From assembly GCA_038062115.1 (NCBI GenBank), contig JBBTXS010000012.1, positions 23,141 to 87,140 on the forward strand: a DNA stretch of 64,000 nt, in the 5' to 3' direction. Source of the DNA: Patescibacteria group bacterium (GTDB lineage Bacteria; Patescibacteriota; Microgenomatia; Levybacterales; UBA12049). The first letter of the stretch is position 1, and each line of letters starts with the position of its first letter. Under the pieces are notes generated by a model that saw nothing but the letters and a program-made list of their open reading frames with translations, was not told the origin of the DNA and ran no database searches. Positions 1,649 through 62,443 of this stretch are shown here, piece after piece. A program made the translations under genes and the position numbers.

Positions 1649-1751
1649 GCTCACATTGGGACTTTTCAAAAGCCTGCGTTTGGGGACTTTGGACGAGAGA
1701 TTGCGTTTGGAGGTCTGCAAAGCCCAAATTGTAGGATGGGAAAAGTTGCCG
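1649..1751. repeat. Left arm of a perfect 103-bp inverted repeat flanking the serine recombinase gene
   Basis: Its reverse complement is identical to 3198..3300. It contains sub-repeats gcgtttgggg and gcgtttggagg. Confidence 0.9.
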
Positions 1752-1799
1752 GTTAAAAGAGAAGAAAAAAACGCAAAAATTAATAAGAAATAAACTGCC

Positions 1800-3362
1800 A
1801 TGAAATATATAGGATATTGCAGGAAATCAACGGATGAAAAAGATAGACAGATTTTATCTATAGAAGCTCAAATAGCAGAGCTGACCGAATTTGCTAGACG
1901 CGAAGGTCTGGAAATTTCAGAATTTATTACAGAGGCAAAGACAGCAAAAATTCCAGGCCGTGAACAATTTGACAAACTCTTAATGCTGCTTGAAAAAGGA
2001 AAAGCTCAAGGAATTATCTCATGGCATCCCGACCGCTTAGCTCGTAATTCCATTGATGGCGGAAAGATTATTTACTTACTCGATACAGGAAAACTTCTTG
2101 ACCTAAAATTCCCATCACATTGGTTTGAGAATACACCGCAAGGGAAATTTATGCTTAGTATCGCTTTTAGTCAGTCGAAATATTATATTGACAATCTTTC
2201 CGAGAATGTTAAAAGAGGTTTAAGACAAAAATTAAGAAACGGTGTTTATCCCGGAAAAGCATTTTGGGGATATGCGAACAATAAAGAGTTGGGAATTATT
2301 GAGGTTGATGTGACAGAGTCCAAGATTATCAAAAAGGCTTTCCAGTTATTTGCTAGTGGCGGAAAAACTTTTATGGATATTTCCCGCTTCTTACATAAGC
2401 ATGGACTTACCCAAAAAAACGGCAAAGATCTAAAAATAGACAGGATAAAAGAAATTCTTTCAAATAAATTTTACATTGGCATCATCTTTTACGCAGGAGA
2501 ATACTACGAAGGAAAACATAAGTTGTTTATTTCGAAAACATTATTTGACCGAGCGCAAAAACAGTTCAAATTCACTGAAAGATCAAAGCCCAATAACAAA
2601 CACAATTTATCTTTCTTAGGACTGTTGAAATGCGGTGAATGTAAAGCAAGTATTACCGGAGAAATGAAAATAAAATATTACAAAGAAACCCAAAGAAAAG
2701 CTGAATATATTTATTACAGTTGTACTAAAAAACTGGGAAACTGTTTGCAGAAACCAATTCCAGAGCCGGAACTGGAATTACAAATAAGAAAAGCGGTTAG
2801 CGATGTGGCCTTGCCCGAAAGTTGGGCTAGCGATTGGTATAAATGGCTTGAAAGAGATGAGATAACAGAAAAACAATTGAAAGAAGAAAATTTACAGAAA
2901 TTAAATGAAGAAATAAAAGCTCTGGATCAAAAATTAAATTTTCTTTTAGATAGTTACTTGGACAGCGTTATTGATGCCGATATCTACAAGAAAAAGAAAA
3001 ATGAATTATTCGAGGAGAAACTAAGAAAACAAGAAGAAATTACCAAGTTGCAGACCAATGGTTCAAGTTGGCTCGAACCTTTCAAGGAATTCGTAGATAG
3101 CGCATTACAATGCGGAAAAATTGCGCGCGAAAAAAAAACAAAAGAAGAATTGGCATTCTTCGCAAAAACTGTCGGCTCGAACTTCTTTTTAACTGATCGG
3201 CAACTTTTCCCATCCTACAATTTGGGCTTTGCAGACCTCCAAACGCAATCTCTCGTCCAAAGTCCCCAAACGCAGGCTTTTGAAAAGTCCCAATGTGAGC
3301 GGGATACGGGAGTCGAACCCGTCTTTTCAGATTGGAAATCTGACGTTGAACCGCTCAACTAA
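1800..3362 (+). CDS. Large serine recombinase (resolvase/invertase N-terminal domain, recombinase domain and zinc ribbon). The ORF has no stop until it has read through the right inverted repeat and tRNA-Gly, so the true 3' end is uncertain.
   Basis: The N-terminus YCRKSTDEKDRQILSIEAQ...RLARN is a serine-recombinase catalytic motif. The Cys cluster CGECKASITGEMK...YYSCTKKLGNC is a zinc ribbon typical of large serine recombinases, followed by a coiled-coil region. Confidence 0.8.
   Translation: MKYIGYCRKSTDEKDRQILSIEAQIAELTEFARREGLEISEFITEAKTAKIPGREQFDKLLMLLEKGKAQGIISWHPDRLARNSIDGGKIIYLLDTGKLLDLKFPSHWFENTPQGKFMLSIAFSQSKYYIDNLSENVKRGLRQKLRNGVYPGKAFWGYANNKELGIIEVDVTESKIIKKAFQLFASGGKTFMDISRFLHKHGLTQKNGKDLKIDRIKEILSNKFYIGIIFYAGEYYEGKHKLFISKTLFDRAQKQFKFTERSKPNNKHNLSFLGLLKCGECKASITGEMKIKYYKETQRKAEYIYYSCTKKLGNCLQKPIPEPELELQIRKAVSDVALPESWASDWYKWLERDEITEKQLKEENLQKLNEEIKALDQKLNFLLDSYLDSVIDADIYKKKKNELFEEKLRKQEEITKLQTNGSSWLEPFKEFVDSALQCGKIAREKKTKEELAFFAKTVGSNFFLTDRQLFPSYNLGFADLQTQSLVQSPQTQAFEKSQCERDTGVEPVFSDWKSDVEPLN
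3198..3300. repeat. Right arm of the 103-bp perfect inverted repeat
   Basis: It is the exact reverse complement of 1649..1751 and overlaps the 3' end of tRNA-Gly by about 3 bp. Confidence 0.9.
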
Positions 3363-3368
3363 TCCCGC
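3298..3368 (-). tRNA. tRNA-Gly (anticodon UCC)
   Basis: Manual fold of the reverse complement gives acceptor GCGGGAT/ATCCCGC, D-stem GTTG/CAAC, anticodon stem TCAGA/TCTGA with loop TTTCCAA, and T-stem ACGGG/CCCGT with loop TTCGACT. Confidence 0.85.
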
Positions 3369-3521
3369 GCATATTGATTTTATCAAATGCGATCAGTATT
3401 GTGCAAATGGAAAATTTAAGCTAAAATAACTGTGAACGTCGGGGTGGCGGAATTGGAGCGGAGTCCCGACGAGTCGGGACGAGCTCGCTTGCGAGCGTAG
3501 CGCGAGACAAGCGTGGAAGAC

Positions 3522-3605
3522 GCCGCGGTGGTGGAATGGTAGACACGAAGGCCTTAAGAGCCTTTGTTCCAAAAGAACGTGAGAGTTCGACTCTCTCCCG
3601 CGGCA
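3522..3605 (+). tRNA. tRNA-Leu (anticodon UAA), class II with a long variable arm
   Basis: Acceptor GCCGCGG/CCGCGGC, anticodon stem AAGGC/GCCTT with loop CTTAAGA, variable-arm hairpin GTTC-CAAAA-GAAC, T-stem GAGAG/CTCTC with loop TTCGACT. Confidence 0.8.
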
Positions 3606-3607
3606 CT

Positions 3608-3681
3608 CGGGGAGTAGCTCAGTTGGCTAGAGCGCACGGTTTGGGACCGTGAGGTCGGAGGTTCAAGTCCTCTCTCCCCGA
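3608..3681 (+). tRNA. tRNA-Pro (anticodon UGG)
   Basis: Acceptor CGGGGAG/CTCCCCG, D-stem GCTC/GAGC, anticodon stem CACGG/CCGTG with loop TTTGGGA, T-stem GGAGG/CCTCT with loop TTCAAGT. Confidence 0.85.
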
Positions 3682-6724: not shown

Positions 6725-7498
6725 ATGAAAACACTAAATCTTCTTCTTACATTGTCTTCCCTAAACGTCATTTTAGTTACAATAGAAAGATTTTCTTTCA
6801 CAACAAAAATTATCTTACAACCATATAGTTTTCTAAGACTTCATGAAGTATTCCAAATAACAGTGCTAATACTTATAACTATTGTTATCCCCTTTTTTCT
6901 ATTAAAAGAAATTACTCATAATTTTGATTCGCTAAAAACTGCAAAAGGCACAATCTTAGGACTTTTTTTCGTAGTTGGCGTTTATTTATATGGCACTGGA
7001 AACGGGGTACACGAACTCGCAAGCTACTTATTTAATACATTTTGTCCTATAAAAAATTTTTCATCCTTACAATGCCAAAGCATGTATTTTAATGATTACT
7101 ATTTTGGAAACATATTGTATTTTGTAGGAGCGTTCTTAATAAATATATCTTTGATAATTTTTGAGCGAATAAAACCTAACATTAATTTCTCTAAGAAAGA
7201 TTTAGCCGTAACTTCTATAAATAGTCTTATTCTTGCATTTGCAATTTTTGCTTATTCAGCTTTTGATCGGGTGTTAGTTGGTCTTGTCTATTCTATGTTT
7301 ACTATGATTGTAGCCTATTTCTTTTTATTTACCGCGCACCACAATGCCCCGCTCGTCAGGACAATGCCCCGCCCGTTAGGTCGTGGTGCGGGGTTTACTT
7401 GGAAGAAAAAGTATATTTATATTCCATTTACTTTGTATATAACAATCGCCTATACAATTGGAACCCTAGCCTCAATAGCGATTCGATTTATTCGATAA
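6725..7498 (+). CDS. Polytopic membrane protein of unknown function; its C-terminal region carries an in-frame small repeat element
   Basis: Multiple hydrophobic helices. The ORF could start at 6650, but 6725 (MKTLNLLL) looks more plausible. Residues ...TAHHNAPLVRTMPRPLGRGAGFT... are encoded by the repeat at 7332..7399. Confidence 0.45.
   Translation: MKTLNLLLTLSSLNVILVTIERFSFTTKIILQPYSFLRLHEVFQITVLILITIVIPFFLLKEITHNFDSLKTAKGTILGLFFVVGVYLYGTGNGVHELASYLFNTFCPIKNFSSLQCQSMYFNDYYFGNILYFVGAFLINISLIIFERIKPNINFSKKDLAVTSINSLILAFAIFAYSAFDRVLVGLVYSMFTMIVAYFFLFTAHHNAPLVRTMPRPLGRGAGFTWKKKYIYIPFTLYITIAYTIGTLASIAIRFIR
7332..7399. repeat. Small GC-rich hairpin repeat (family C, ends in GGTGCGGGGTTTACT); related to 26621..26724
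   Basis: Terminal inverted repeat cgcaccac/gtggtgcg, tandem sub-units (a)caatgccccgc, and the same 3' terminus ggtgcggggtttact as the copy at 26.7 kb. Confidence 0.7.
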
Positions 7499-12721: not shown

Positions 12722-14107
12722 TTATTTGTATAGAATATTTGATCTCAACTTGCGGTGATAGAAAATTGCAAATCTGTGAGCTTCGTCGCGGATTCGCTGT
12801 GTAAGATGGAGGACTGGCGAGTCCTTTGGAAGGAAAATTTCGACAAAGCTTGCTCTGTCGTCATTCTGAGGAGCGTTAACGACTCCAGAATCTCTCCTTT
12901 CAGTGTAATTAAAGGAGACTCTGGACGCGCTCGTTCCTCGCTTGCCAGAATGACGGTTTAAGCTTAGGGGAATAATAATTGTCTCCTCCCTTTTTGCAAG
13001 TCCTATAACTGGAATTTGCATACCCTTTTCTTTTAAAGCCATAAGAGCAGAGGATACTTGACCTTTTCCCCCATCAACTATTATTAAATCGGGCATTGGC
13101 CATTCTTTGTGATTGAGCCTTCGTCCTATAACTTCTTTAATCATTGCAAAATCGTTTGGAACAGGATAAAAATTTTTAATTTTAAACCTTCTATATAAAG
13201 ATGAATCTTTGTCTCCATTAATAAAAACTACCATAGATCCAGTAGCAGATTTTCCTTGGATATTAGATATATCGTAGCATTCTATTCTTTCTAATTTTTC
13301 AGCATGTATTCCATTTTGGGAGAGTAAGCATCGTAGACTAGACAACTGATTATCTAGTGTGTCTTGAGTTAAGTTTGGGTTAACTTTATGATCAAATTGA
13401 TTGTAGGCTGGATTTGTAATTAGTTTTATGGCATCTAGTTTTTTTTGAATTAGAGCTGCTTTTTCAAATTCTTCAAGTTTACTTAAATTATCTCTTTCTT
13501 TTTTAAGATCTTTAACAACTTTTTTTGTTTTGCCATTTAAGAAAGTAATAAGATGATTAATGTTTGATCTATATTCCTTATTGCCAACAACCTCTGGACA
13601 TGGGCAAAGTCCTAAATGGTAGTATAGGCAAAGCTTTTTTTGGTGATTTATGGTGGATTGAAACGGAAAAATTTTTCGTACAGTTTTTAAGACTAAGCGT
13701 AATGCCTGAGCGTTTGGAAATGGGCCAAAATATATAGATTTTTTGTCCTGAGCTTTCCTTGCAATTAAAACTTTAGGATATTTATCTACAGTAATTCGTA
13801 TAAGGGGATATGCTTTTCCATCAGTAAGCCGTACATTATATTTTGGCTTATATTTTTTAATGTAATTTGCTTCTAACAATAGTGCTTCTATTTCTGAGGC
13901 AACTGAAATTGTTTTTATTTTTTTGATCTTTGAAATCAAAATTTTTGTCTTTGGGCTAAGCAAGTTTAGATTAGTAAAATAAGAACTAACCCGCTTTTTA
14001 AGACTTTTTGCTTTTCCAACGTACAAGACTTCATTGTTTTGGTTTAAAAATAGATATACCCCAGGCCCTTGGGATAATGATCGATAAAAGTATGCTGATA
14101 GTAACAA
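12722..14107 (-). CDS. uvrC: Excinuclease ABC subunit C (UvrC), short form; carries an in-frame palindromic-element insertion near the C-terminus
   Basis: GIY-YIG domain (GPGVYLFLNQNNEVLYVGKAKSLKKRVSSYF), UvrBC motif, LAKREE...RIRDEAHRFAIFYHRK. An insert of about 35 aa (RHSGKRGTSASRVSFNYTERRDSGVVNAPQNDDRASF) lies between LAKREE and EIFLP. Confidence 0.85.
   Translation of the reverse strand: MLLSAYFYRSLSQGPGVYLFLNQNNEVLYVGKAKSLKKRVSSYFTNLNLLSPKTKILISKIKKIKTISVASEIEALLLEANYIKKYKPKYNVRLTDGKAYPLIRITVDKYPKVLIARKAQDKKSIYFGPFPNAQALRLVLKTVRKIFPFQSTINHQKKLCLYYHLGLCPCPEVVGNKEYRSNINHLITFLNGKTKKVVKDLKKERDNLSKLEEFEKAALIQKKLDAIKLITNPAYNQFDHKVNPNLTQDTLDNQLSSLRCLLSQNGIHAEKLERIECYDISNIQGKSATGSMVVFINGDKDSSLYRRFKIKNFYPVPNDFAMIKEVIGRRLNHKEWPMPDLIIVDGGKGQVSSALMALKEKGMQIPVIGLAKREETIIIPLSLNRHSGKRGTSASRVSFNYTERRDSGVVNAPQNDDRASFVEIFLPKDSPVLHLTQRIRDEAHRFAIFYHRKLRSNILYK
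12859..12955. repeat. Palindromic element, family A (termini GTCATTCTGAG...CAGAATGAC), in frame inside uvrC
   Basis: Terminal inverted repeat gtcattctg/cagaatgac, internal imperfect palindrome tccagaatctctccttt/aaaggagactctgga, GC-rich relative to the flanks. Confidence 0.75.
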
Positions 14108-26624: not shown

Positions 26625-26724
26625 TACCCAGAATGCCCTGACCGTAAGGTCAGGGATGAATGGGTTATTTCCGCGAAGCGAACCCCTAATGCCCCGAGCG
26701 TAAGCTCGGGGTGCGGGGTTTACT
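26621..26724. repeat. Family C hairpin repeat (ends GGTGCGGGGTTTACT) with two GTAA-tetraloop hairpins
   Basis: Hairpins ccctgacc-gtaa-ggtcaggg and ccccgagc-gtaa-gctcgggg. The terminus is shared with 7332..7399. Confidence 0.7.
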
Positions 26725-29500: not shown

Positions 29501-29595
29501 TGTCATTGCGATCAGTCAGGCTTAGCCTGACTGAGAAGCAATCTCTCATCAATGGGATTGCCACGTCGCTCGTTCCTCGCTCCTCGCAATGACAC
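29501..29595. repeat. Palindromic element, family A (tgtcattgcga...ctcgcaatgacac)
   Basis: Termini plus internal palindromes tcagtcaggcttagcctgactga and gcaatc...gattgc. Intergenic between cysS and the glycoside-hydrolase-like gene. Confidence 0.8.
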
Positions 29596-31365: not shown

Positions 31366-31797
31366 ATGCCAAAACTCAAAAGTCATGACCCTGAGCGAAG
31401 TCGAACGGGTCAAAAGTTAGAATGGCAGGAAGCAAAAGAGGTAAAAAAAAATATAGAAAATATTCTTAAGGTTTTAAATTTGCCTCACATCGATTCTTCT
31501 AGAATTTTTTGTTTTAGAACCAAAGGATCAAAATCAAGATCATATGCACGCATTTGGTCTATGCCAAAAATCTTTCAGACAGTTCTTAATGTAAAACCAG
31601 CTTATGTAATAGAAGTGATAGCCCGGCATTTTGATAGATTAGATACAGACGGAAAGAAAAAAGTATTAATTCACGAACTTTTGCATATTCCTAAAAATTT
31701 TTCTGGAGCGCTCTTACCTCACCGTAGTCGCAATCGGCATCTTGGAGCATTGGTGAATAGATTGTTTAAAGAATATAAGAAAATTTCTAATTCCTAA
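31366..31797 (+). CDS. Small HExxH zinc-metallopeptidase-like protein (DUF45/YgjP-, WLM- or SprT-like)
   Basis: VLIHELLHIPKNFSGALLPH contains HExxH plus a downstream His. It starts 10 bp after the DUF458 gene. Confidence 0.4.
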   Translation: MPKLKSHDPERSRTGQKLEWQEAKEVKKNIENILKVLNLPHIDSSRIFCFRTKGSKSRSYARIWSMPKIFQTVLNVKPAYVIEVIARHFDRLDTDGKKKVLIHELLHIPKNFSGALLPHRSRNRHLGALVNRLFKEYKKISNS

Positions 31798-31912
31798 TTA
31801 ACCTAATTTCTAAATAAATCCCAAAAACTAAGTTCCAATTGGGTTATTTAGACATTTAGGAATTGATTAGGTCAATTAGAAATTAGTAATTAGAAATTTA
31901 TATGATTACTAT
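31775..31912. repeat. First copy of a 138-bp perfect direct repeat (second copy at 32114..32251)
   Basis: Identical to 32114..32251. It spans the last 23 bp of the HExxH gene, the intergenic region, and ATGATTACTAT (the first 11 bp of the holA-like gene). Confidence 0.9.
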
Positions 31913-32115
31913 CCTGAGTTTCCCATTTTCGAGTAGCAAAATTAAAAAGCTTGATTTGACAATCTTTTTTTGAAAAAATTTAGTGCGAAACCGCACTACC
32001 GAAAGATTTCAAAGACAAAAGCTAATAGAAGAAATGCTATGGTTTCTAGCAGACTTTCGAGCCTAGAAATGGTTTTTTGCTAAAATTAAACCGCACTAAT
32101 TGGGAAACTCAGGAT
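31911..32115. mobile_element. 205-bp MITE-like non-autonomous element with 15-bp perfect terminal inverted repeats
   Basis: Terminal repeats atcctgagtttccca / tgggaaactcaggat, internal hairpin tagtgcg-aaa-ccgcacta, and no ORF. Confidence 0.7.
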
Positions 32116-32251
32116 AAGAAAATTTCTAATTCCTAATTAACCTAATTTCTAAATAAATCCCAAAAACTAAGTTCCAATTGGGTTATTTAGACATTTAGGA
32201 ATTGATTAGGTCAATTAGAAATTAGTAATTAGAAATTTATATGATTACTAT
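32114..32251. repeat. Second copy of the 138-bp direct repeat; contains the functional start of the holA-like gene
   Basis: Identical to 31775..31912. Confidence 0.9.
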
Positions 32252-42844: not shown

Positions 42845-42857
42845 AAACAGTATTGTG

Positions 42858-42965
42858 GCTGGGTCATAAATACCCATTTGTCATTCCGAGCGAGTGTAGC
42901 GAGTCGAGGAATCTCGTTGAAGGAGATTTCTCGGCAAGCTCGAAATGACAATTGTGACCCAGTCA
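42858..42965. repeat. Family A palindromic element with the extended terminal inverted repeat (c)tgggtcat...tgacccagtca; near-identical to 52151..52260
   Basis: Its core ttgtcattccgagcgagtgtagcgagtcgaggaatctcgttgaaggagatttctcggcaagctcgaaatgacaa differs by one base from the copy at 52.2 kb. Confidence 0.85.
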
Positions 42966-42998
42966 TAAACAGTATTATAGCAAATATTTACACCCATA

Positions 42999-52126: not shown

Positions 52127-52150
52127 AACGTTTTGTAATATATGAGATTA

Positions 52151-52260
52151 TGACTGGGACATAAATACTCATTTGTCATTCCGAGCGAGTGTAGCGAGTC
52201 GAGGAATCTCTTTGAAGGAGATTTCTCGGCAAGCTCGAAATGACAATTATGACCCAGTCA
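52151..52260. repeat. Family A palindromic element (near-identical to 42858..42965), between atpA and atpH
   Basis: Same core with one mismatch, extended terminal repeat tgactggg.../...cccagtca, and a flanking direct repeat atatgagatta. Confidence 0.85.
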
Positions 52261-52591
52261 CATATGAGATTATATCATCTAGCCTACTTTTTAGATTGAA
52301 TTCGTAAACATTGTCGTTATCTACGATTTTTACCCCTAACATTAAAGATGGATCAATTTTGTAAACTATTTTTTTATTAGGAAATAATTTTTCAAATCCT
52401 ATGTTACTGTATGCCTTAAAAGGTGTAGTAACTATAATGTTTTTTTTATCTTCGTAATTTTTAAGCGCATCAATATACTGTTTAAGTTCGAATCTTGTAA
52501 AACAGTTTACAATGGCATATACTTTGTTGCTGTCTAAAATATCATTTTTATAACTTTCTGCCACCAAATTTTTTAGTTTGTTTCTGGTCAT
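52247..52591 (-). CDS. atpH: ATP synthase F1 delta subunit (OSCP), short form
   Basis: Operon position between atpF and atpA, and a C-terminus (DPSLMLGVKIVDNDNVYEFNLKSRL) that resembles delta. Confidence 0.6.
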   Translation of the reverse strand: MTRNKLKNLVAESYKNDILDSNKVYAIVNCFTRFELKQYIDALKNYEDKKNIIVTTPFKAYSNIGFEKLFPNKKIVYKIDPSLMLGVKIVDNDNVYEFNLKSRLDDIISYVTGS

Positions 52592-57000: not shown

Positions 57001-57313
57001 TTTTAATAAGATTTTTGTATCCTGTATTATTTTTTGCCAAAAGTATTAGATGGTTTGAGTCGTTGTCAACTCCCGCCTCTTTATCGTGTCTTGATCTTTT
57101 GGATATGTAGATTTCGCATCCAATAATTGGTTTAATACCTAAAGCTTGGCATGTTTTATAAAAGGTAATCGTTCCGTACATATTTCCATGATCTGTAATC
57201 GCTAACGCTTTCATATTAAGTTCTTTGGCACGCTTGACCATTTCTGGGATTTTTGAAAGCCCATCTAAAAGAGAATATTCACTATGATTATGAAGGTGAA
57301 CAAAATTTGCCAT
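54095..57313 (-). CDS. dnaE: DNA polymerase III alpha subunit
   Basis: PHP domain (FVHLHNHSEYSLLDG), polymerase core, and an OB domain; 1072 aa. Confidence 0.95.
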   Translation of the reverse strand: MANFVHLHNHSEYSLLDGLSKIPEMVKRAKELNMKALAITDHGNMYGTITFYKTCQALGIKPIIGCEIYISKRSRHDKEAGVDNDSNHLILLAKNNTGYKNLIKIISIANLEGYYYRPRTDIELLRQFSNGLICLSACVNGYISDPLIQNQEETAVKRAEVLYKIFGEGNFYLELQKHINVEDQDILNEKLIALSKKMGLPLVATNDNHYIYNTDAEAQEILLCIQTQTALNTPNRKLSMISSPDFYMKSQEEMKGLFIQTQTALENTSRIADMCNVEISLGKWIMPIFDVPNNKTPQEFMKNKVEEGLKNRYKEITREIRERAEYELSIILKKGYETYILIVADFVNWAKNHGITVGPGRGSNAGSIVSYALGISDIDPLFFKLPFERFLNPMRPSPPDIDLDFADNRRDEVIEYVTQKYGRDKVAQIITFGTMEARGSVRDTGRALGMPYAVCDRIAKMIPPGWQGHAMTIEKALEQSTDLKTVYATEPDAKKLLDLATRLEGVVRHASMHAAGVVIADRPLTEYTPLQRETNGEKIVTQYDMYTVGEDGVGLLKIDLLGLRNLAIIEEALRFIKENQVINIDLSQASFDDKKTFELLSSGETTGIFQLESSGMRRYIKELKPTSIFDLQAMVALYRPGPMANIPEFVKRKHSASHIKYPDPRLKEILKESYGVITFQDDVLLTAIKVAGYSWLETDKLRKAIGKKIPSEMKKQHDKFVQGCVAGGMKKDNAQNLWNLFEPFAGYGFNKAHAAGYATIAFRTAYLKAHFPVEFMTALLTAESRGTTGPTKNEKIAQAVAECKRLKLTVLSPDVNKSASDFTIEDKKNIRFGLSAIKNVGEAAINSILTARRTGLFKSLVDFYDRVDPGPVNKKTVESLIKAGAMDSFGNRANLLISYPEIAENAHRKRKQAQVGQSSLFGDSLGMDNLKRTVSNVDDFSSNEKLAFEKEFLGLYLTSHPQLDNLLSLKSVISHEIDLLTEEKEGTRVKIGGIIETTKRIFTKSGNEMAFSTVGDEKGLSVECVIFPRIYERHKNLLIKDSVVIIEGKLDTKNDKPTVIAEKISTKNHFSS

Positions 57314-57322
57314 AGCTCAATA

Positions 57323-57412
57323 TGTCATTGCGAGCGAACTTTAGTTCGCGCGGCAATCTCTTTTGATGGGGATTGCTTCGTCTCAGGCTTCGCCTGATCC
57401 TCGCAATGACAC
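57323..57412. repeat. Family A palindromic element between dnaE and gatB
   Basis: tgtcattgcgag...ctcgcaatgacac with internal palindromes gcgaactttagttcgc, gcaatc...gattgc and tcaggcttcgcctga. Confidence 0.8.
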
Positions 57413-58857
57413 TATAATAATTGCTTTTTAATCTCTCTTTTTACTATATTAGGATCTATACTTTTTAAAATTTTTCTTAATACCATTCCTACCAAAAACA
57501 TAATCACATTTGCTTTACCTTTTTTATAATCGCTTATTGCTCTTGGATTGTCAAGAATTACTTGTTTTACTGTTTTTTCAAGGTACTTCTGATCAACAGT
57601 CGTTTTTTGCGTTGACGTAATAATACTTCGAACTAACTGCGCTGGCATTGTTTTTTCTAAATCTACTTTTTTATTGATAATCCAGTTAGCAATAACCTTT
57701 GTATTTATAGATTCCTGATTCTTAATTCTTAATTCACGATTCACTTTTACCGCTTCTTCGAAATATTCTGCAATCCCTCTATCTTTTGTTAATATTTCAC
57801 TGTCGTAATCTGACAAACCATAAATTTTTGTGAATCGTTGAAACTTTTGATCGGGTAGTTCTGTCATTTGAAATTTGAAATTTGAAATTTGTAATTCCAC
57901 CCACCGAATGGGTGGTATATCTGGCTCTGGGAAGTATCTATAATCCATTGTTTCTTCTTTTACTCTTTGAGACACTGTAATTTGTTTTTTGCTATCCCAA
58001 CCCCTTGTTTCTTGGATTGGAGTTTTTCCTGATTCTAAAATCTTTTTCTGCCTTTCTATCTCGTAATTTATTGCCTTTTCGACAAAACGGAAAGAATTAA
58101 TATTTTTTACTTCGACTTTATAGGTAGGCAACCTCTCACTGTCATTGCGAGCGAAGCGAAGCAATCCCTCTACTTTTGAGATTGCTTCGTCGCCGCGTCT
58201 GACGCGGCTTCCTCGCAATGACATTTCAGATAGTGAAATGTTAGGCTCCAACCGCATCTGCCCTCTCTCCATGTCTGCGTCTGACACGTCTAAGTATCTA
58301 ACGATTTGCTGGAGTTTTTTTAGATATTCAACGACCTCTGTTGCAGATTCAAAATCAGGTTCAGTAACTATTTCAACAAGCGGAACTCCTGATCGATTAA
58401 AATCTATCAGCGTTACTTTTTCCCCTTTTACAATAGAATGAATTAGCTTACCAGTATCTTCCTCCATGTGAACCCGACGTATCCGAATTATTTTTTTACC
58501 CTCACCTCGAAGGTGTTTATCCGTTTCACCTTCCAGGTGTACATATCCACCGACTGCAAATGGTTGATCGTATTGTGAAATCTGGTATCCCTTAGGAAGG
58601 TCTGGGTAAAAATAATTTTTCCGATCAAACTTTGAAAATAGAGGAATCTTGCAATTTAATGCAAGCCCAATCATCACACACCACTCAATTGCTTTTTTGT
58701 TTGGAACTGGTAGGGCTCCAGGGAGCCCTAAGCAGACTGGACAAACGTGAGTATTTGGGTCTTTACCAAAATAATCCACAGAACAGCCACAAAACATTTT
58801 AGATTTTGTTTTTAACTCAACATGAACCTCAAGACCTATGACTGGTTTGTACCCCAT
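57412..58857 (-). CDS. gatB: Asp/Glu-tRNA(Asn/Gln) amidotransferase subunit B, with an in-frame palindromic-element insertion
   Basis: MGYKPVIGLEVHVEL..., a zinc-binding CGCS, and KNINSF. An extra ~28 aa (EMSLRGSRVRRGDEAISKVEGLLRFARNDSE) sits in the loop before KVEVKNINSF. Confidence 0.9.
   Translation of the reverse strand: MGYKPVIGLEVHVELKTKSKMFCGCSVDYFGKDPNTHVCPVCLGLPGALPVPNKKAIEWCVMIGLALNCKIPLFSKFDRKNYFYPDLPKGYQISQYDQPFAVGGYVHLEGETDKHLRGEGKKIIRIRRVHMEEDTGKLIHSIVKGEKVTLIDFNRSGVPLVEIVTEPDFESATEVVEYLKKLQQIVRYLDVSDADMERGQMRLEPNISLSEMSLRGSRVRRGDEAISKVEGLLRFARNDSERLPTYKVEVKNINSFRFVEKAINYEIERQKKILESGKTPIQETRGWDSKKQITVSQRVKEETMDYRYFPEPDIPPIRWVELQISNFKFQMTELPDQKFQRFTKIYGLSDYDSEILTKDRGIAEYFEEAVKVNRELRIKNQESINTKVIANWIINKKVDLEKTMPAQLVRSIITSTQKTTVDQKYLEKTVKQVILDNPRAISDYKKGKANVIMFLVGMVLRKILKSIDPNIVKREIKKQLL
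58140..58224. repeat. Family A palindromic element inserted in frame within gatB
   Basis: tgtcattgcgagcgaagcgaagcaatc...gattgcttcg...ctcgcaatgacat. The reading frame stays open through the element. Confidence 0.8.
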
Positions 58858-59596
58858 TACTTCTCCTTTCCTTAACAAAATTTTGAACTTCTTGATAACT
58901 TTTCTGCCATGGCCAATAAAGCGAACCTGATAGACCATATACAGGAATACAAAAGTTAGGTCGATCTCTATTTATTGATGTCATTTCCGAAACAACAATA
59001 TCTACCGTTTCTTGTACAGTCGTACTTTTAAGATCAACACATTCTGAGAAACGGATAGAACTTAGTATTTGATCAAGTACAACAATGCCTTTAAATAATT
59101 GTGGACCTACTCTATTTTTTGCTAATTCTTCTACGGGGTTTCTTTTAGCATAAGGCTTATTTTCAACAAGAATAACACACAGATTCTCTCGGGGGATCAC
59201 GATCCTATTGAAGTTATACTTAAGATCATGCGTCGCGCTCAAAATAGCAGTTTCAAAAGATTTCTCCAACGTTACATCTGTATTAGAAAGGGATATACTA
59301 GTCTTATTTACGGGATCTACCCAGTTTCTGCTAAAAAGTATCCCTTTTTTTCTTGCAAAACTCTCAGCCACTAATCCATGGAGAAGAATTCCCCGTAGTC
59401 TATCTACTGGTAAATTTGTGAGGCCATTATTGTTATGAATATCCCCTAAGCGGATAAAGCCATGCTTAAATAACAACGGCTCAGTGTGGATGTCTACAAC
59501 TTTATTTATTGCTGCTTCTTGTGCCATTTCAATAAAGCTGGATGAATGTTCAGGACTTACTTCGACATTCATAGTATAGGTTTTTGTTTGTGCCAC
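58829..59596 (-). CDS. Hypothetical protein located between gatA and gatB
   Basis: Intact 255-aa ORF within the gat cluster. It has a weak GDIH motif but no complete metallophosphoesterase signature. Confidence 0.35.
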   Translation of the reverse strand: MAQTKTYTMNVEVSPEHSSSFIEMAQEAAINKVVDIHTEPLLFKHGFIRLGDIHNNNGLTNLPVDRLRGILLHGLVAESFARKKGILFSRNWVDPVNKTSISLSNTDVTLEKSFETAILSATHDLKYNFNRIVIPRENLCVILVENKPYAKRNPVEELAKNRVGPQLFKGIVVLDQILSSIRFSECVDLKSTTVQETVDIVVSEMTSINRDRPNFCIPVYGLSGSLYWPWQKSYQEVQNFVKERRSNGVQTSHRS

Positions 59597-61023
59597 TCTG
59601 TTTCTTGTTCGTATTTATAAGCAACGTTTAGTATTAACGCTTCCGAAAACTGGGGGCCGATGATTTGCATGCCAATGGGTAGACCTTGTTTTGAAAATCC
59701 GCAGGGAACACTGATGCCAGGAAGCCCTGCGATAGAGGACGGTTCTACCAATACATCTGCCATTTCGCCAAACATAGGATGATTTTTGCTAGAGCCAAGA
59801 GGTAACGCTGTTGATGGACTTGTTGGCCCTATAATTACATCTACTCCGCCAGTTGACGGATTAAATGCTTTTTCAAAGTCTTGAATTATAAGTGTTCTAA
59901 CTTTTTGTGCTTTATTGTAATATTGGTCATAGTACCCAGCAGACAATGTATATGTTCCAAGCATTATTCTCCGTTTTGCCTCATCGCCAAAGTAAGATCG
60001 ATCATTACCATACCTAATCCCATCGTATCGCGCAAGATTTGAAGAGACTTCCGAACGCTGAAGAATCGTATATACTGCGATTGCATATTTTGGTGGAAAA
60101 AGTTTAATAGTTTTTATTATTGCACCCTTTTTTTCTAAAACTTTTAAAGCATTATGTACTCCATTTTGAACTTCTTGATCAACACCCTCGAAATAATCAT
60201 TAGAAACTCCTATCTTGACTTTCTCAATCGATCGATTGAGATTTTTGGTATAGTATGGTACTTTTTTGGGAGAAGTAGTGGCATCAAAAGAATCTTTTCC
60301 TGCTAATACTTGTAAAATTAATGCACTATCTTCTACAGTTTTTGTAATTGGGCCAGGAGAATCAAGAGAAGACGCCATTGCGATAAGGCCATATCTACTT
60401 ACCCTTCCATAAGTTGGCTTAAGACCTACAACTCCACACCAAGATGCTGGTTGTCGAATAGAACCAGCAGTTTCTGATCCAATTCCAGCAATTGCTTGAT
60501 TAGCTGCAACGCTTGCCGCAGCGCCGCCTGATGATCCACCAGGTAAAAAATTCGTATTCCAAGGATTTTTTGTAGTTCCATAATCAGAAGTTTCGGTTGA
60601 TGATCCATGCGCCCACGCATCCATGTTGGTTTTTCCAAGCATTATCATCCCAGCATCTTTGAGTCGGTTTACAACTGTAGCATCATATGGTGGAATAAAA
60701 TCATCAAGTACCTTACTTGACGCAGTTGTTCGAATACCTTTTGTACAAAAATTATCTTTTATGCTAATAGGGATGCCAAGAAGGGGAAGAGTATTTAATT
60801 GCTCAATTGTTAAATTGTTAAATTGTTTGTCTGCCATTTTTGCAGCTCCGATTGCTTCTTTTTCGCAAACTGTAATAAACGCATTTATCTTTGAGTCGAG
60901 TTTTTTAATTTGGTCTAGGCAGTCTTCGGTAAGTTCGAAAGATGAAAATTTTTTATTCCTTAATCCTTCTTGTGCTTGTTTAATTGTTAGTTGATTTAGT
61001 TTCATAGTTTCTCTCAATGTCAT
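59569..61023 (-). CDS. gatA: Glutamyl-tRNA(Gln) amidotransferase subunit A (amidase signature family)
   Basis: GGSSGGAAASVAA (amidase signature) with the Ser-cisSer-Lys triad context. Confidence 0.9.
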   Translation of the reverse strand: MTLRETMKLNQLTIKQAQEGLRNKKFSSFELTEDCLDQIKKLDSKINAFITVCEKEAIGAAKMADKQFNNLTIEQLNTLPLLGIPISIKDNFCTKGIRTTASSKVLDDFIPPYDATVVNRLKDAGMIMLGKTNMDAWAHGSSTETSDYGTTKNPWNTNFLPGGSSGGAAASVAANQAIAGIGSETAGSIRQPASWCGVVGLKPTYGRVSRYGLIAMASSLDSPGPITKTVEDSALILQVLAGKDSFDATTSPKKVPYYTKNLNRSIEKVKIGVSNDYFEGVDQEVQNGVHNALKVLEKKGAIIKTIKLFPPKYAIAVYTILQRSEVSSNLARYDGIRYGNDRSYFGDEAKRRIMLGTYTLSAGYYDQYYNKAQKVRTLIIQDFEKAFNPSTGGVDVIIGPTSPSTALPLGSSKNHPMFGEMADVLVEPSSIAGLPGISVPCGFSKQGLPIGMQIIGPQFSEALILNVAYKYEQETEWHKQKPIL

Positions 61024-61037
61024 GCTGAATTTATTTC

Positions 61038-61089
61038 AGCATCTATTTTCTGTCATGAGTAAGATTCTGAAACAAGTTCAGGATGACAC
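61038..61089. repeat. Family B palindromic element between gatA and gatC
   Basis: catgctgaatttatttcagcatc hairpin plus gattctgaaacaagttcaggatgacac. Confidence 0.7.
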
Positions 61090-61093
61090 AGAA

Positions 61094-61375
61094 CTATCCA
61101 TCTAGTATTGTTTTTACTTTAAATAAACCATTATGTACAGACTTTGCATTTTTTAAAACTTCTTCTTGAGAAAGCGAGGGTTTTGCTTCATCTTCTCTTG
61201 TAACATTTTCCAGGCCTGTTACTTGACTTGTAGGTTCAATATTTTCTGTAGCAACTTCTTTTAGTTTGTTTATATACTGTAAGATTGAAAAGAGTTGTTT
61301 TTGAAATTTTTCCTTTTTATCTTCTTTTATCTGTAGATTCGCAAGTTTTGCAATATGGGAAACATCTATTTTCAT
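61094..61375 (-). CDS. gatC: Glutamyl-tRNA(Gln) amidotransferase subunit C
   Basis: ~93 aa: MKIDVSHIAKLANLQIKEDKKEKF...PTSQVTGLENVTREDE... resembles GatC. The ORF could extend to 61540, but only by crossing a palindromic intergenic region. Confidence 0.7.
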   Translation of the reverse strand: MKIDVSHIAKLANLQIKEDKKEKFQKQLFSILQYINKLKEVATENIEPTSQVTGLENVTREDEAKPSLSQEEVLKNAKSVHNGLFKVKTILDG

Positions 61376-61491
61376 AAATTTGCCTTTCCCCCGAGTTTTG
61401 TTAATTAATGATGCAAAGGATCTCTTTTCTAGGAGATCCCTCTGCCTGCTGACCTCGGGATGAGTCTGAAATAACATTCCAGACTCAGTTA

Positions 61492-62358
61492 TTATACCGA
61501 AATACCCAAGCGTTTCGCAATTGTCTCGTGGGCTTGCCATTCAAGGGAGTCGTTAAGAGAGGAGAGGTTGATAGATTTTTTGTACTTTCTCTTAAGAGCA
61601 AGTTTTATTAGGTAATCTGCAAAATGGGGATTTTTTGGGAGGATTGGGCCGTGTAAATAGCTTCCAAAACTGTTTTTATAAACTACTCCTTCTGTTTTAT
61701 CTTCTCCATTATTCCCAAAACCCTTAAGAACTTTACCCAAAGGTTTTATCTCTTTGCCAAGATAAGTTCTACCCCCATGATTCTCGAACCCAACCAGATA
61801 ATCCTTTTTGTCATTGCGAGGAGTTCTGAGCTTGTCGAAGGACGACGAAGCAATCCCATTGATTTGAGATTGCTTCACTTCGTTCGTAATGACATCTGTT
61901 TTGATGACAACATTTCCAATAAGTCTCGGTACTTTTTCTCCCCGGTTTTCTGTACATAAATCTAGGATACATAGTCCATCGATAATATTTCCGTCTGCTT
62001 CTTTGTAGTATTTGCCTAAAAACTGATAAGCGCCGCAAATATAAAGGCCTGTAACCCCATCCTCTATAATCTCTTTTAGCGCTTTTACCTTTTCTTTGCT
62101 AAAATCATGGGAAACGATTTTTTGCTGCGTATCTTGTGCTCCGCCCATAAATAGAAAATCACAAGATCTTAAATCTTGAATCTTAAATCCTAAATCTAAA
62201 TGTTTTACCTTAGTCTCAATCTTTCGCCATTCACATCGCTTTTGAAGACAAATAATATTACCTCTATCGCCATAGGTACTCATTAACTCTGGATACAACC
62301 AACCAATAACCAACTTATAATTCATACACTTATTGTCATCCCGAGCGAAGGGATGCAC
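61492..62358 (-). CDS. gatD: GatD-like glutamine amidotransferase (CobB/CobQ-type GATase partner of MurT), with an in-frame palindromic-element insertion
   Basis: It is adjacent to murT, has a GATase-like Cys context (LYICGAYQFLG), and ends in HGP. An inserted ~29 aa (DVITNEVKQSQINGIASSSFDKLRTPRNDKKD) is encoded by 61809..61895. Confidence 0.7.
   Translation of the reverse strand: MHPFARDDNKCMNYKLVIGWLYPELMSTYGDRGNIICLQKRCEWRKIETKVKHLDLGFKIQDLRSCDFLFMGGAQDTQQKIVSHDFSKEKVKALKEIIEDGVTGLYICGAYQFLGKYYKEADGNIIDGLCILDLCTENRGEKVPRLIGNVVIKTDVITNEVKQSQINGIASSSFDKLRTPRNDKKDYLVGFENHGGRTYLGKEIKPLGKVLKGFGNNGEDKTEGVVYKNSFGSYLHGPILPKNPHFADYLIKLALKRKYKKSINLSSLNDSLEWQAHETIAKRLGISV
61809..61895. repeat. Family A palindromic element inserted in frame within gatD
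   Basis: tgtcattgcgag...gaagcaatcccattgatttgagattgcttc...cgtaatgacat. Confidence 0.8.
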
Positions 62359-62443
62359 CAGACGGTGCGTCCCGAAGTCGAGGGATCTCCTGCAATTGCG
62401 ATGAAAGAGATTTCTCTCAGGCTTCGCCTGATCGAAATGACAA
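62333..62443. repeat. Family A palindromic element (111 bp) between murT and gatD
   Basis: ttgtcatcccgag...cgaaatgacaa. It shares the module tctcaggcttcgcctgatc with the copy at 57.3 kb and has an internal palindrome gggatgcaccagacggtgcgtccc. Confidence 0.8.

Follow-up and report, generated by a model that had tools for sequence, protein, structure and literature searches.

Short palindromic repeats of bacterial genomes include the Rickettsia palindromic elements (RPEs), whose sizes range from roughly 100 to 150 bp, and the REPINs, doublets of repetitive extragenic palindromic sequences (REPs) of the GTAG type that are mobilised by REP-associated tyrosine transposases (RAYTs). The RPEs (RPE-1 to RPE-10; Ogata et al., 2000, 2002; PMC10969869), of about 150 bp, insert in frame into many unrelated genes (PMC10969869). 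Hairpins of high stability are rare within coding sequences; the RPEs are the classic case among the few examples reported, and their inserts in Rickettsia were reported to be compatible with protein function (PMC6649704). The CGTC-tagged REP superfamily (Di Nocera et al., 2013) is characterised in its description (PMC3733652) by a terminal CGTC tag, often replaced by TGTC, and by a monomer consisting of an 8-9 bp stem that starts with the pairs A-T and T-A, a loop of 4-5 nt and a 3-nt tail with the consensus CCA. According to that description, these REPs mostly form head-to-head dimers, of which the intragenic in-frame ones encode 20-30 amino acids (aa), particularly in genes for repair, uvr among them; no transposase is linked to them, and the occurrences given comprise Micavibrio, Rickettsia RPE-4/RPE-6, Neisseria dRS3 and distant phyla, the phyla of the candidate phyla radiation (CPR) not being among the five listed. 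In-frame inserts of 20-30 aa are thus documented for both RPEs and REP dimers (PMC10969869; PMC3733652). Here we describe an 84-nt palindromic element, assigned to a repeat family designated A, within gatB, the gene for subunit B of the Asp/Glu-tRNA amidotransferase, in a 64-kb stretch of a Levybacteria (CPR) contig, JBBTXS010000012.1; this whole stretch is referred to below as the window. We are largely confident that the segment is a non-autonomous palindromic repeat, which inserted into the DNA for a loop tip of GatB and is translated there, being tolerated rather than required.

An earlier sequence-only reading of the same DNA had placed a palindromic element at 58140-58224, in the conserved core of gatB. 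Both the element and its location were borne out, and only its end had been set one base too far. The features of the gene and of the element are given below.

57412-58857, minus strand: gatB, 481 aa starting with MGYKPVIG, as given in the list of open reading frames (ORFs).
57412-57414, minus strand: gatB stop codon TAG, directly abutting another family A copy.
58140-58223: family A palindromic element, 84 nt or 28 codons; its minus-strand translation is MSLRGSRVRRGDEAISKVEGLLRFARND, residues 212-239 of GatB.
58140-58151, plus strand: left terminal inverted repeat TGTCATTGCGAG, pairing 12/12 with 58212-58223.
58212-58223, plus strand: right terminal inverted repeat CTCGCAATGACA, read directly.
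58158-58188, plus strand: central hairpin GAAGCAATC, 13-nt loop, GATTGCTTC, with a 9-bp stem; this is the core conserved in the family.
58192-58208, plus strand: side hairpin GCCGCGT-CTG-ACGCGGC, with a 7-bp stem, specific to this copy.

The inserted residues stand between two conserved strands, in the context ...RLEPNISL-SE-MSLRGSRVRRGDEAISKVEGLLRFARND-SERLPT-YKVEVKNINSF, and are followed in the minus-strand reading by SERLPTYKVEVKNINSF. The calculated folding energy of the element is -48.6 kcal/mol for the plus strand and -50.3 kcal/mol for the minus strand (z = -7.4 and -7.5), and none of 200 shuffled sequences was equally stable. Its GC content amounts to 54.8% vs 35.3% in the remaining part of gatB. 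The sequence-only reading had also proposed that about 28 extra residues are encoded by a family A element with the frame staying open, and this proved correct, the element comprising 28 codons without a stop or a frameshift. Two of its six frames are free of stops and gatB uses one of them, as would be expected if selection for an open frame filtered the insertions. The encoded peptide is more hydrophilic than GatB as a whole (grand average of hydropathy -0.69 vs -0.46), and the tryptic peptides predicted from it include GDEAISK, VEGLLR and LEPNISLSEMSLR.

The assumption that GatB normally carries a short loop at this site is well supported by its orthologues, as the loop does not exceed 12 aa in 66 of the 74 readable gatB loci (from GTDB species representatives). 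The baseline length is 8-10 aa, with RPxGxxxFG being typical in non-CPR phyla and RKxGExxLPx in Levybacteria. Among these 74 loci the long, strongly structured loops are restricted to those of CPR, all the non-CPR ones being short. Likewise, the phmmer alignments to the solved chains 3al0_B (T. maritima) and 3h0l_B (A. aeolicus) break at query residues 211-245. When the 84 nt are deleted in silico, the coding-strand junction reads ...TCTGAAA joined to GTGAGAGG, and the loop becomes SESERLPT, eight residues long and similar to SSNSELPK (orthologue P0020), TINNKLPN (P0019) and the loop of P0035. Since the loops are mostly short elsewhere, the solved structures have no counterpart of the segment, its GC content is high, copies of it occur in the window and its deletion leaves an ordinary 8-aa loop, the segment in gatB is to be regarded, from the sequence comparison, as an insertion and not as an ancestral loop; the alignment with orthologues suggested by the sequence-only reading gave the same answer.

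The position of the insert in the protein was assessed with an AlphaFold2 model built on an alignment of 76 orthologues. The model had a mean predicted local distance difference test score (pLDDT) of 83.4 and a predicted template modelling score of 0.80, and Foldseek matched it to the GatB chains 3ip4_B, 3h0l_B and 3al0_B with template modelling scores of 0.68-0.8. Only at residues 115-118 and 214-239, the latter range corresponding to the insert, did the pLDDT fall below 50, and the insert is flanked in the model by the strands 201-211 and 248-251. The insert is accordingly predicted to form a disordered appendage on the loop between two strands, in a position compatible with the fold, in line with the surface loop that the sequence-only reading had suggested looking for by modelling.

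The gene carrying the insert looks functional. Its product contains the Pfam domains GatB_N and GatB_Yqey and passes the cut-offs of the NCBIfam equivalogs NF004012 (536.6 vs 338 bits) and TIGR00133 (475.8 vs 314.8 bits), it keeps every column invariant across the 76 orthologues, and its ORF is interrupted by neither a stop nor a frameshift; the adjoining gatC and gatA are intact as well. Because the frame is intact, the invariant residues are kept, the equivalog cut-offs are passed and the model adopts the GatB fold, this copy appears, as far as its sequence can tell, to be functional rather than a pseudogene, and the test for inactivation that had been proposed along with the insertion thereby came out negative. 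An identical protein (P0001) is present on four contigs in NCBI and the European Nucleotide Archive (ENA), one of which comes from the Hainich groundwater sample ERZ1292624. The nearest non-identical orthologues are about 66% identical, and the named ones are mostly labelled Candidatus Levybacteria (CPR/Microgenomates).

Several further peculiarities of the gene were observed. The other low-pLDDT residues, 115-118, lie in a second small extra segment of the window GatB, ETDKHLRG (residues 111-118, approximately 58504-58527). Inside gatB, at 57866-57896, the heptamer ATTTGAA is repeated 4.4 times in tandem (95% matches), encoding ...QISNFKFQM...; as the unit is 7 nt long, the gain or loss of one copy would shift the gatB frame. 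Similar short tandem arrays are found in gatA (60797-60827, period 8) and gatD (62166-62201, period 7). Between gatA and gatB, and overlapping both ends, lies an ORF of 255 aa (58829-59596, minus strand) without a Pfam match. The syntenic Levybacteria loci L082 and L203-L206 have gatB immediately after gatA, so this ORF is a lineage-specific insertion into the gatCAB string.

The element in gatB is not solitary in the window. The pattern of the family A termini, GTCATTGCGA - N55-80 - TCGCAATGAC, occurs three times (29502-29593, 57324-57410 and 58141-58222) vs no occurrence in 100 shuffles, and altogether ten elements were found, four of family A and six related ones, with fold z values from -4.4 to -8.3. 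All the family A copies have common outer arms and the core GCAATC...GATTGC, and differ in their inner hairpins, each of which is perfect and is located at a place equivalent to that of the side hairpin in gatB. The six related elements follow the plan GTCAT-NNN-GA...TC-NNN-ATGAC with other arm sequences. The flanks are TGTCAT...ATGACA in nine of the ten elements and CGTCAT...ATGACG in the remaining one. Besides the gatB copy, the following elements are of importance here.

57323-57411: family A copy that takes up 89 of the 98 nt separating the gatB stop from the dnaE start; fold z = -8.3.
29501-29594: family A copy, intergenic, after a cysS-like ORF.
61809-61894: copy of family A whose right end is degenerate; it stands in frame within gatD (minus-strand ORF 61492-62325) and gives the reading VITNEVKQSQINGIASSSFDKLRTPRND.
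12859-12955: related element CGTCATTCTGAG...CAGAATGACG, in frame in the RNase H endonuclease domain of uvrC (ORF 12725-14107, minus strand).
61019-61087: related element between gatC and gatA, with the left half GTC-ATGCTGAA-TTTAT-TTCAGCAT, which is a monomer of tag, 8-bp stem and 5-nt loop.

Three housekeeping genes in 64 kb, gatB, gatD and uvrC, therefore carry palindromic elements in frame. Query residues 145-176 of the gatD product, a GATase_3 protein that partners MurT, lack an equivalent in S. aureus GatD (5n9m_A), and residues 362-406 of the uvrC product lack one in T. maritima UvrC (2nrr_A). All three genic copies are stop-free in the frame of their gene, which is true of only a minority of the frames of these elements. 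Six of the ten elements lie between genes, despite about 95% of the window being covered by non-overlapping, long stop-to-stop ORFs (a value that estimates its coding content from above), which fits purifying selection against most of the genic insertions. Five elements or fragments (62407-62443, 61810-61893, 61019-61087, 58141-58222 and 57324-57410) cluster in the string murT-gatD-gatC-gatA-orf-gatB-dnaE of about 6 kb (57323-62443), three of them at gene boundaries.

How these elements relate to the known systems depends on whether behaviour or anatomy is considered. Like RPEs, they are multi-copy palindromes that stand in frame in unrelated housekeeping genes, add a peptide compatible with the fold, occur as several families per genome and have no known transposase or target duplication. 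They differ from RPEs in the host (CPR/Levybacteria), in the 84-nt length of the element and in that the same GatB loop is hit by different families throughout the clade; four insert peptides had no match at E ≤ 10 in NCBIfam, which should include an RPE1 domain model. The sequence-only reading had likened the insert to RPEs, which holds for its behaviour and not for sequence membership, since the host belongs to Levybacteria and the anatomy, judged from the sequence, is closer to that of a head-to-head dimer of TGTC-tagged REP-like arms.

The features held in common with the CGTC/TGTC REPs are the tag, the stem starting with A-T and T-A, the outward-facing tags of head-to-head dimers, the large hairpin and a C-rich tail, the inner arm being followed by CC(C/A/T) (GCAATCC in the window, GCAATCCAG in most of the IMG/VR copies listed). 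In-frame genic dimers, including one in a uvr gene, the lack of a linked transposase and the presence in distant phyla, among them in Micavibrio, are further points of likeness, and the element 61019-61087 fits the monomer criterion exactly (8-bp stem, 5-nt loop). In contrast, a half-element of family A pairs over 5 bp alone (ATTGC/GCAAT), its arms pairing across the dimer, and copy-specific hairpins are nested inside. The comparison was made with the text description, on which identity with one of the named CGTC families is no more than possible. REPINs are similar in having two inverted REP-like arms, a hairpin of about 80-100 nt and many copies, mostly intergenic and often directly after stop codons, but the window elements bear no GTAG tag. 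The MITEs (miniature transposable elements with inverted repeats) that make in-frame fusions (ERIC, Correia, Coxiella QMITE1 and Anabaena MITEs; PMC10969869) are also short and non-autonomous, with terminal inverted repeats, and lie within ORFs; unlike in those, a target-site duplication is absent here and no parent insertion sequence with matching ends was seen in the window.

Taken together, these comparisons identify the insert as in-frame selfish DNA of the RPE or REP-dimer type in a CPR lineage, which extends a known phenomenon and introduces no new mechanism. Apparently, the Rickettsia-type pattern of selfish DNA within genes has not yet been described in Levybacteria: no paper on palindromic, REPIN or RAYT elements in CPR, Microgenomates or Patescibacteria was found in the literature collection searched, a literature search with the DNA termini returned unrelated primer sequences only, and the insert peptides had no match in the supplements of PMC3733652. 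Other kinds of elements were rejected as well. With Rfam, the whole window yielded only six tRNAs at the gathering threshold, and the region 57250-58350 only chance-level matches at E ≤ 10, so that a described RNA family is not indicated; an intein, a group I/II intron, an integron attC site or a tRNA-like element is not compatible with the short length of the insert, the lack of a matching Rfam model and its different ends.

The loop that carries the insert has received elements more than once. In an alignment of 120 Levybacteria-like GatB orthologues, the baseline loop is kept in approximately 25 and extended in approximately 95 (about 80%). At least four families of palindromic elements account for many of the extended loops, with the insert peptides falling into the classes SLRG..EAIS..ARDD, CHPELVSGS..MPKQVRHD, CHPERSEGS..SAQND, and VILA..ARPES..GQASMT grouped together with RHSG..SWTSQDD; a large further share consists of sequences matched to no family. 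The insert types are interspersed in a neighbour-joining ordering of the orthologues. In the DNA of seven orthologues (L001, L011, L082 and L203-L206), structured GC-rich GTCAT...ATGAC elements are present at this loop, belonging to different families, offset by 4-9 nt from the NISL codons and read in different frames. Because the offsets and frames differ, at least several of these insertions must have been independent, and the sequences thus indicate that insertion into this loop is recurrent across the clade and not a one-off event. Three more GatB loops, after query residues of about 110, 141 and 374, behave alike, which gives four hotspots in total. L016 and L082 carry in-frame family A copies at GatB loops other than this one, and the loop after residue 110 holds a full palindromic element in many orthologues, e.g., VIANAASKKQ...SSLAAPH in P0007. 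In all eight orthologues examined the genic copies are stop-free. The recurrence may reflect a selective filter that lets inserts pass at loop tips alone, to which a preference for AT-rich targets may add.

On this basis the following course of events can be proposed. The repeat would be a head-to-head pair of TGTC-tagged REP-like arms, capable of forming one long hairpin or cruciform, and it presumably spread in a transposition-like manner from another genomic copy. Its landing site would have been the DNA for the tip of a β-hairpin loop in the catalytic (cradle) domain of GatB, and the 28 mostly hydrophilic residues would be translated as a disordered appendage, leaving the fold and the active site intact. 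Survival of the element in an essential gene would rest on its net length, 84 nt and hence divisible by three, and on its phase, which corresponds to one of the two stop-free frames.

Several points weigh against this account. An allele with an empty site was not found, the junction pattern and the left flank alone giving 0 matches in the metagenomes of the Joint Genome Institute (JGI), a collection without this species, and the nearest orthologue for an empty-site comparison is, by its sequence, merely 66% identical. No ORF resembling a RAYT/HUH Y1 transposase was detected in the window by a motif scan (HUH-like and YxxNP-like motifs only), and a target-site duplication or direct repeat surrounded none of the ten window copies. 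The low pLDDT of the insert is partly to be expected from an alignment without homologous residues at this place. Finally, both the translation of the insert and the retained activity of GatB are deduced from the sequence.

The rival explanation that survives best, albeit as an unlikely one, is that the insert has been co-opted, either with the hairpin acting as an RNA or DNA signal in the murT-gatD-gatC-gatA-gatB-dnaE string (mRNA stability, processing or pausing) or with the peptide serving as a new interaction surface of GatB. It would account for the clustering of five elements in this string of about 6 kb, three of them at gene boundaries, and for the perfect preservation of the stems, and a modulating effect on mRNA is ascribed to REPs located at 3' gene ends (PMC3733652). 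A recent insertion explains the perfect stems equally well, however, and the peptide is predicted to be disordered; because the insert sequences are not conserved between the orthologues, many of which lack any insert, co-option is not supported.

It is very unlikely that RNA processing and ligation, or a ribosomal bypass of the hairpin, takes the element out ahead of translation and leaves mature GatB without the 28 residues. The hairpin is indeed very stable (about -50 kcal/mol), its exact excision would restore the normal 8-aa loop, and CPR bacteria are known for insertions in their rRNA genes. But such a removal would lift the need for an open frame, and yet all the genic copies examined, in the window and in the eight orthologues, are stop-free, though most frames of the elements hold stops, which makes removal at the RNA level improbable. 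In addition, neither an intron-like nor a known RNA family was detected with Rfam, and the inserts of Rickettsia RPEs are compatible with protein function (PMC6649704).

There is even less in favour of the segment being an ancestral, lineage-specific extension of the Levybacteria GatB loop with a chance likeness to the repeats, which we consider highly improbable. Long loops do prevail in the clade, roughly 95 of 120 orthologues being extended, but these extensions are unrelated in sequence and derive from several palindromic families with different offsets and frames, and the loop is short in about 25 orthologues and in all the non-CPR loci. Neither would the perfect stems (12/12, 9/9 and 7/7), the GC content of 55% in a gene of 35%, or further copies sharing its termini, found between genes of the window and in unrelated contigs, be expected of an ancestral loop. 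Finally, it is scarcely credible that this gatB is an inactivated pseudogene or the insert an assembly chimera: an insertion so near to conserved active-site strands, at a distance of a few residues within the catalytic domain, might do harm, but the 481-codon frame, the invariant residues, the equivalog scores, the well-folding model and the neighbouring gatC and gatA all argue for an intact gene, and the insert is no assembly artefact because the identical protein stands on four contigs from independent NCBI and ENA assemblies.

Considered as an inserted palindromic repeat, the element has relatives well beyond Levybacteria. Viral contigs of IMG/VR contain at least 120 stretches (loci L083-L202) with exact 11-nt family A termini and an interior of 45-75 nt; from these, at least 141 family A copies were extracted, most of them on contigs of 60-70% GC. 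Among the matches listed, the copies on high-GC contigs are often a single, nearly perfect hairpin whose arms measure about 30 bp, GTCATTGCGAGCGAAGCGAAGCAATCCAG...CTGGATTGCTTCGCTTCGCTCGCAATGAC. At least 32 copies lie on contigs with less than 50% GC, and 0 of 32 such copies among the matches listed is located in an ORF of at least 150 aa, from which no conclusion is drawn; for the high-GC contigs a count of copies within ORFs is meaningless owing to spurious long ORFs. A copy with exact family A termini is also present in a locus of Micavibrio, an alphaproteobacterial predator (L034, 13356-13453). These sequence matches suggest that one repeat family crosses phyla. A wider reading, which we put forward tentatively and hold to be possible rather than probable, would make REP-like elements of the form (C/T)GTCAT...ATGAC(G/A) a major undescribed source of lineage-specific protein insertions in CPR, with loop tips of essential enzymes, such as the four GatB sites, serving as landing pads that are refilled by different families. 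Within that joint reading, the family would be common to CPR, Alphaproteobacteria (Micavibrio) and many viral contigs, and the 11-nt termini common to all three would therefore point to horizontal spread, possibly phage-borne, by a widely conserved mobilising activity.

Some other repeats and a recombinase gene of the window may be recorded here. A 131-nt segment is repeated at 90% identity (42852-42982 and 52147-52277), and as each copy contains an element GTCATTCCGAG...CTCGAAATGAC, the repeated unit is larger than the hairpin; the copy at 42852-42982 lies within an ORF of 153 aa without a Pfam match. A GC-rich hairpin repeat of another kind, AATGCCCCG...CGGGGTTTACT, which has no relation to the GTCAT family, is found at 7341-7399 and 26688-26724 and is partly a tandem 20-mer at 7341-7380. 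There is also a perfect direct repeat of 138 nt (31775-31912 and 32114-32251, 339 nt apart); it contains AT-rich inverted repeats as well as tandem units of 7 nt. The sole recombinase found in the window is a large serine recombinase (ORF 1794-3359; Resolvase, Recombinase and Zn_ribbon_recom), for which no link to the elements was seen. Its region (1649-3368) contains inverted repeats of 118 nt with 94% complementarity (1649-1766 and 3183-3300) and adjoins tRNA genes (3298-3681), and may be an element integrated at a tRNA site.

The insert in gatB represents a clear case of coding-sequence hairpins in a reduced CPR genome, with independent insertions into one loop of GatB in most members of the clade. 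Should this prove general, a part of the unusual protein insertions of CPR would be explained, and annotators would gain a sequence signature by which selfish inserts can be told from functional domains. The GatB loops would then provide a natural assay of the insertion rate and target choice of this repeat superfamily.

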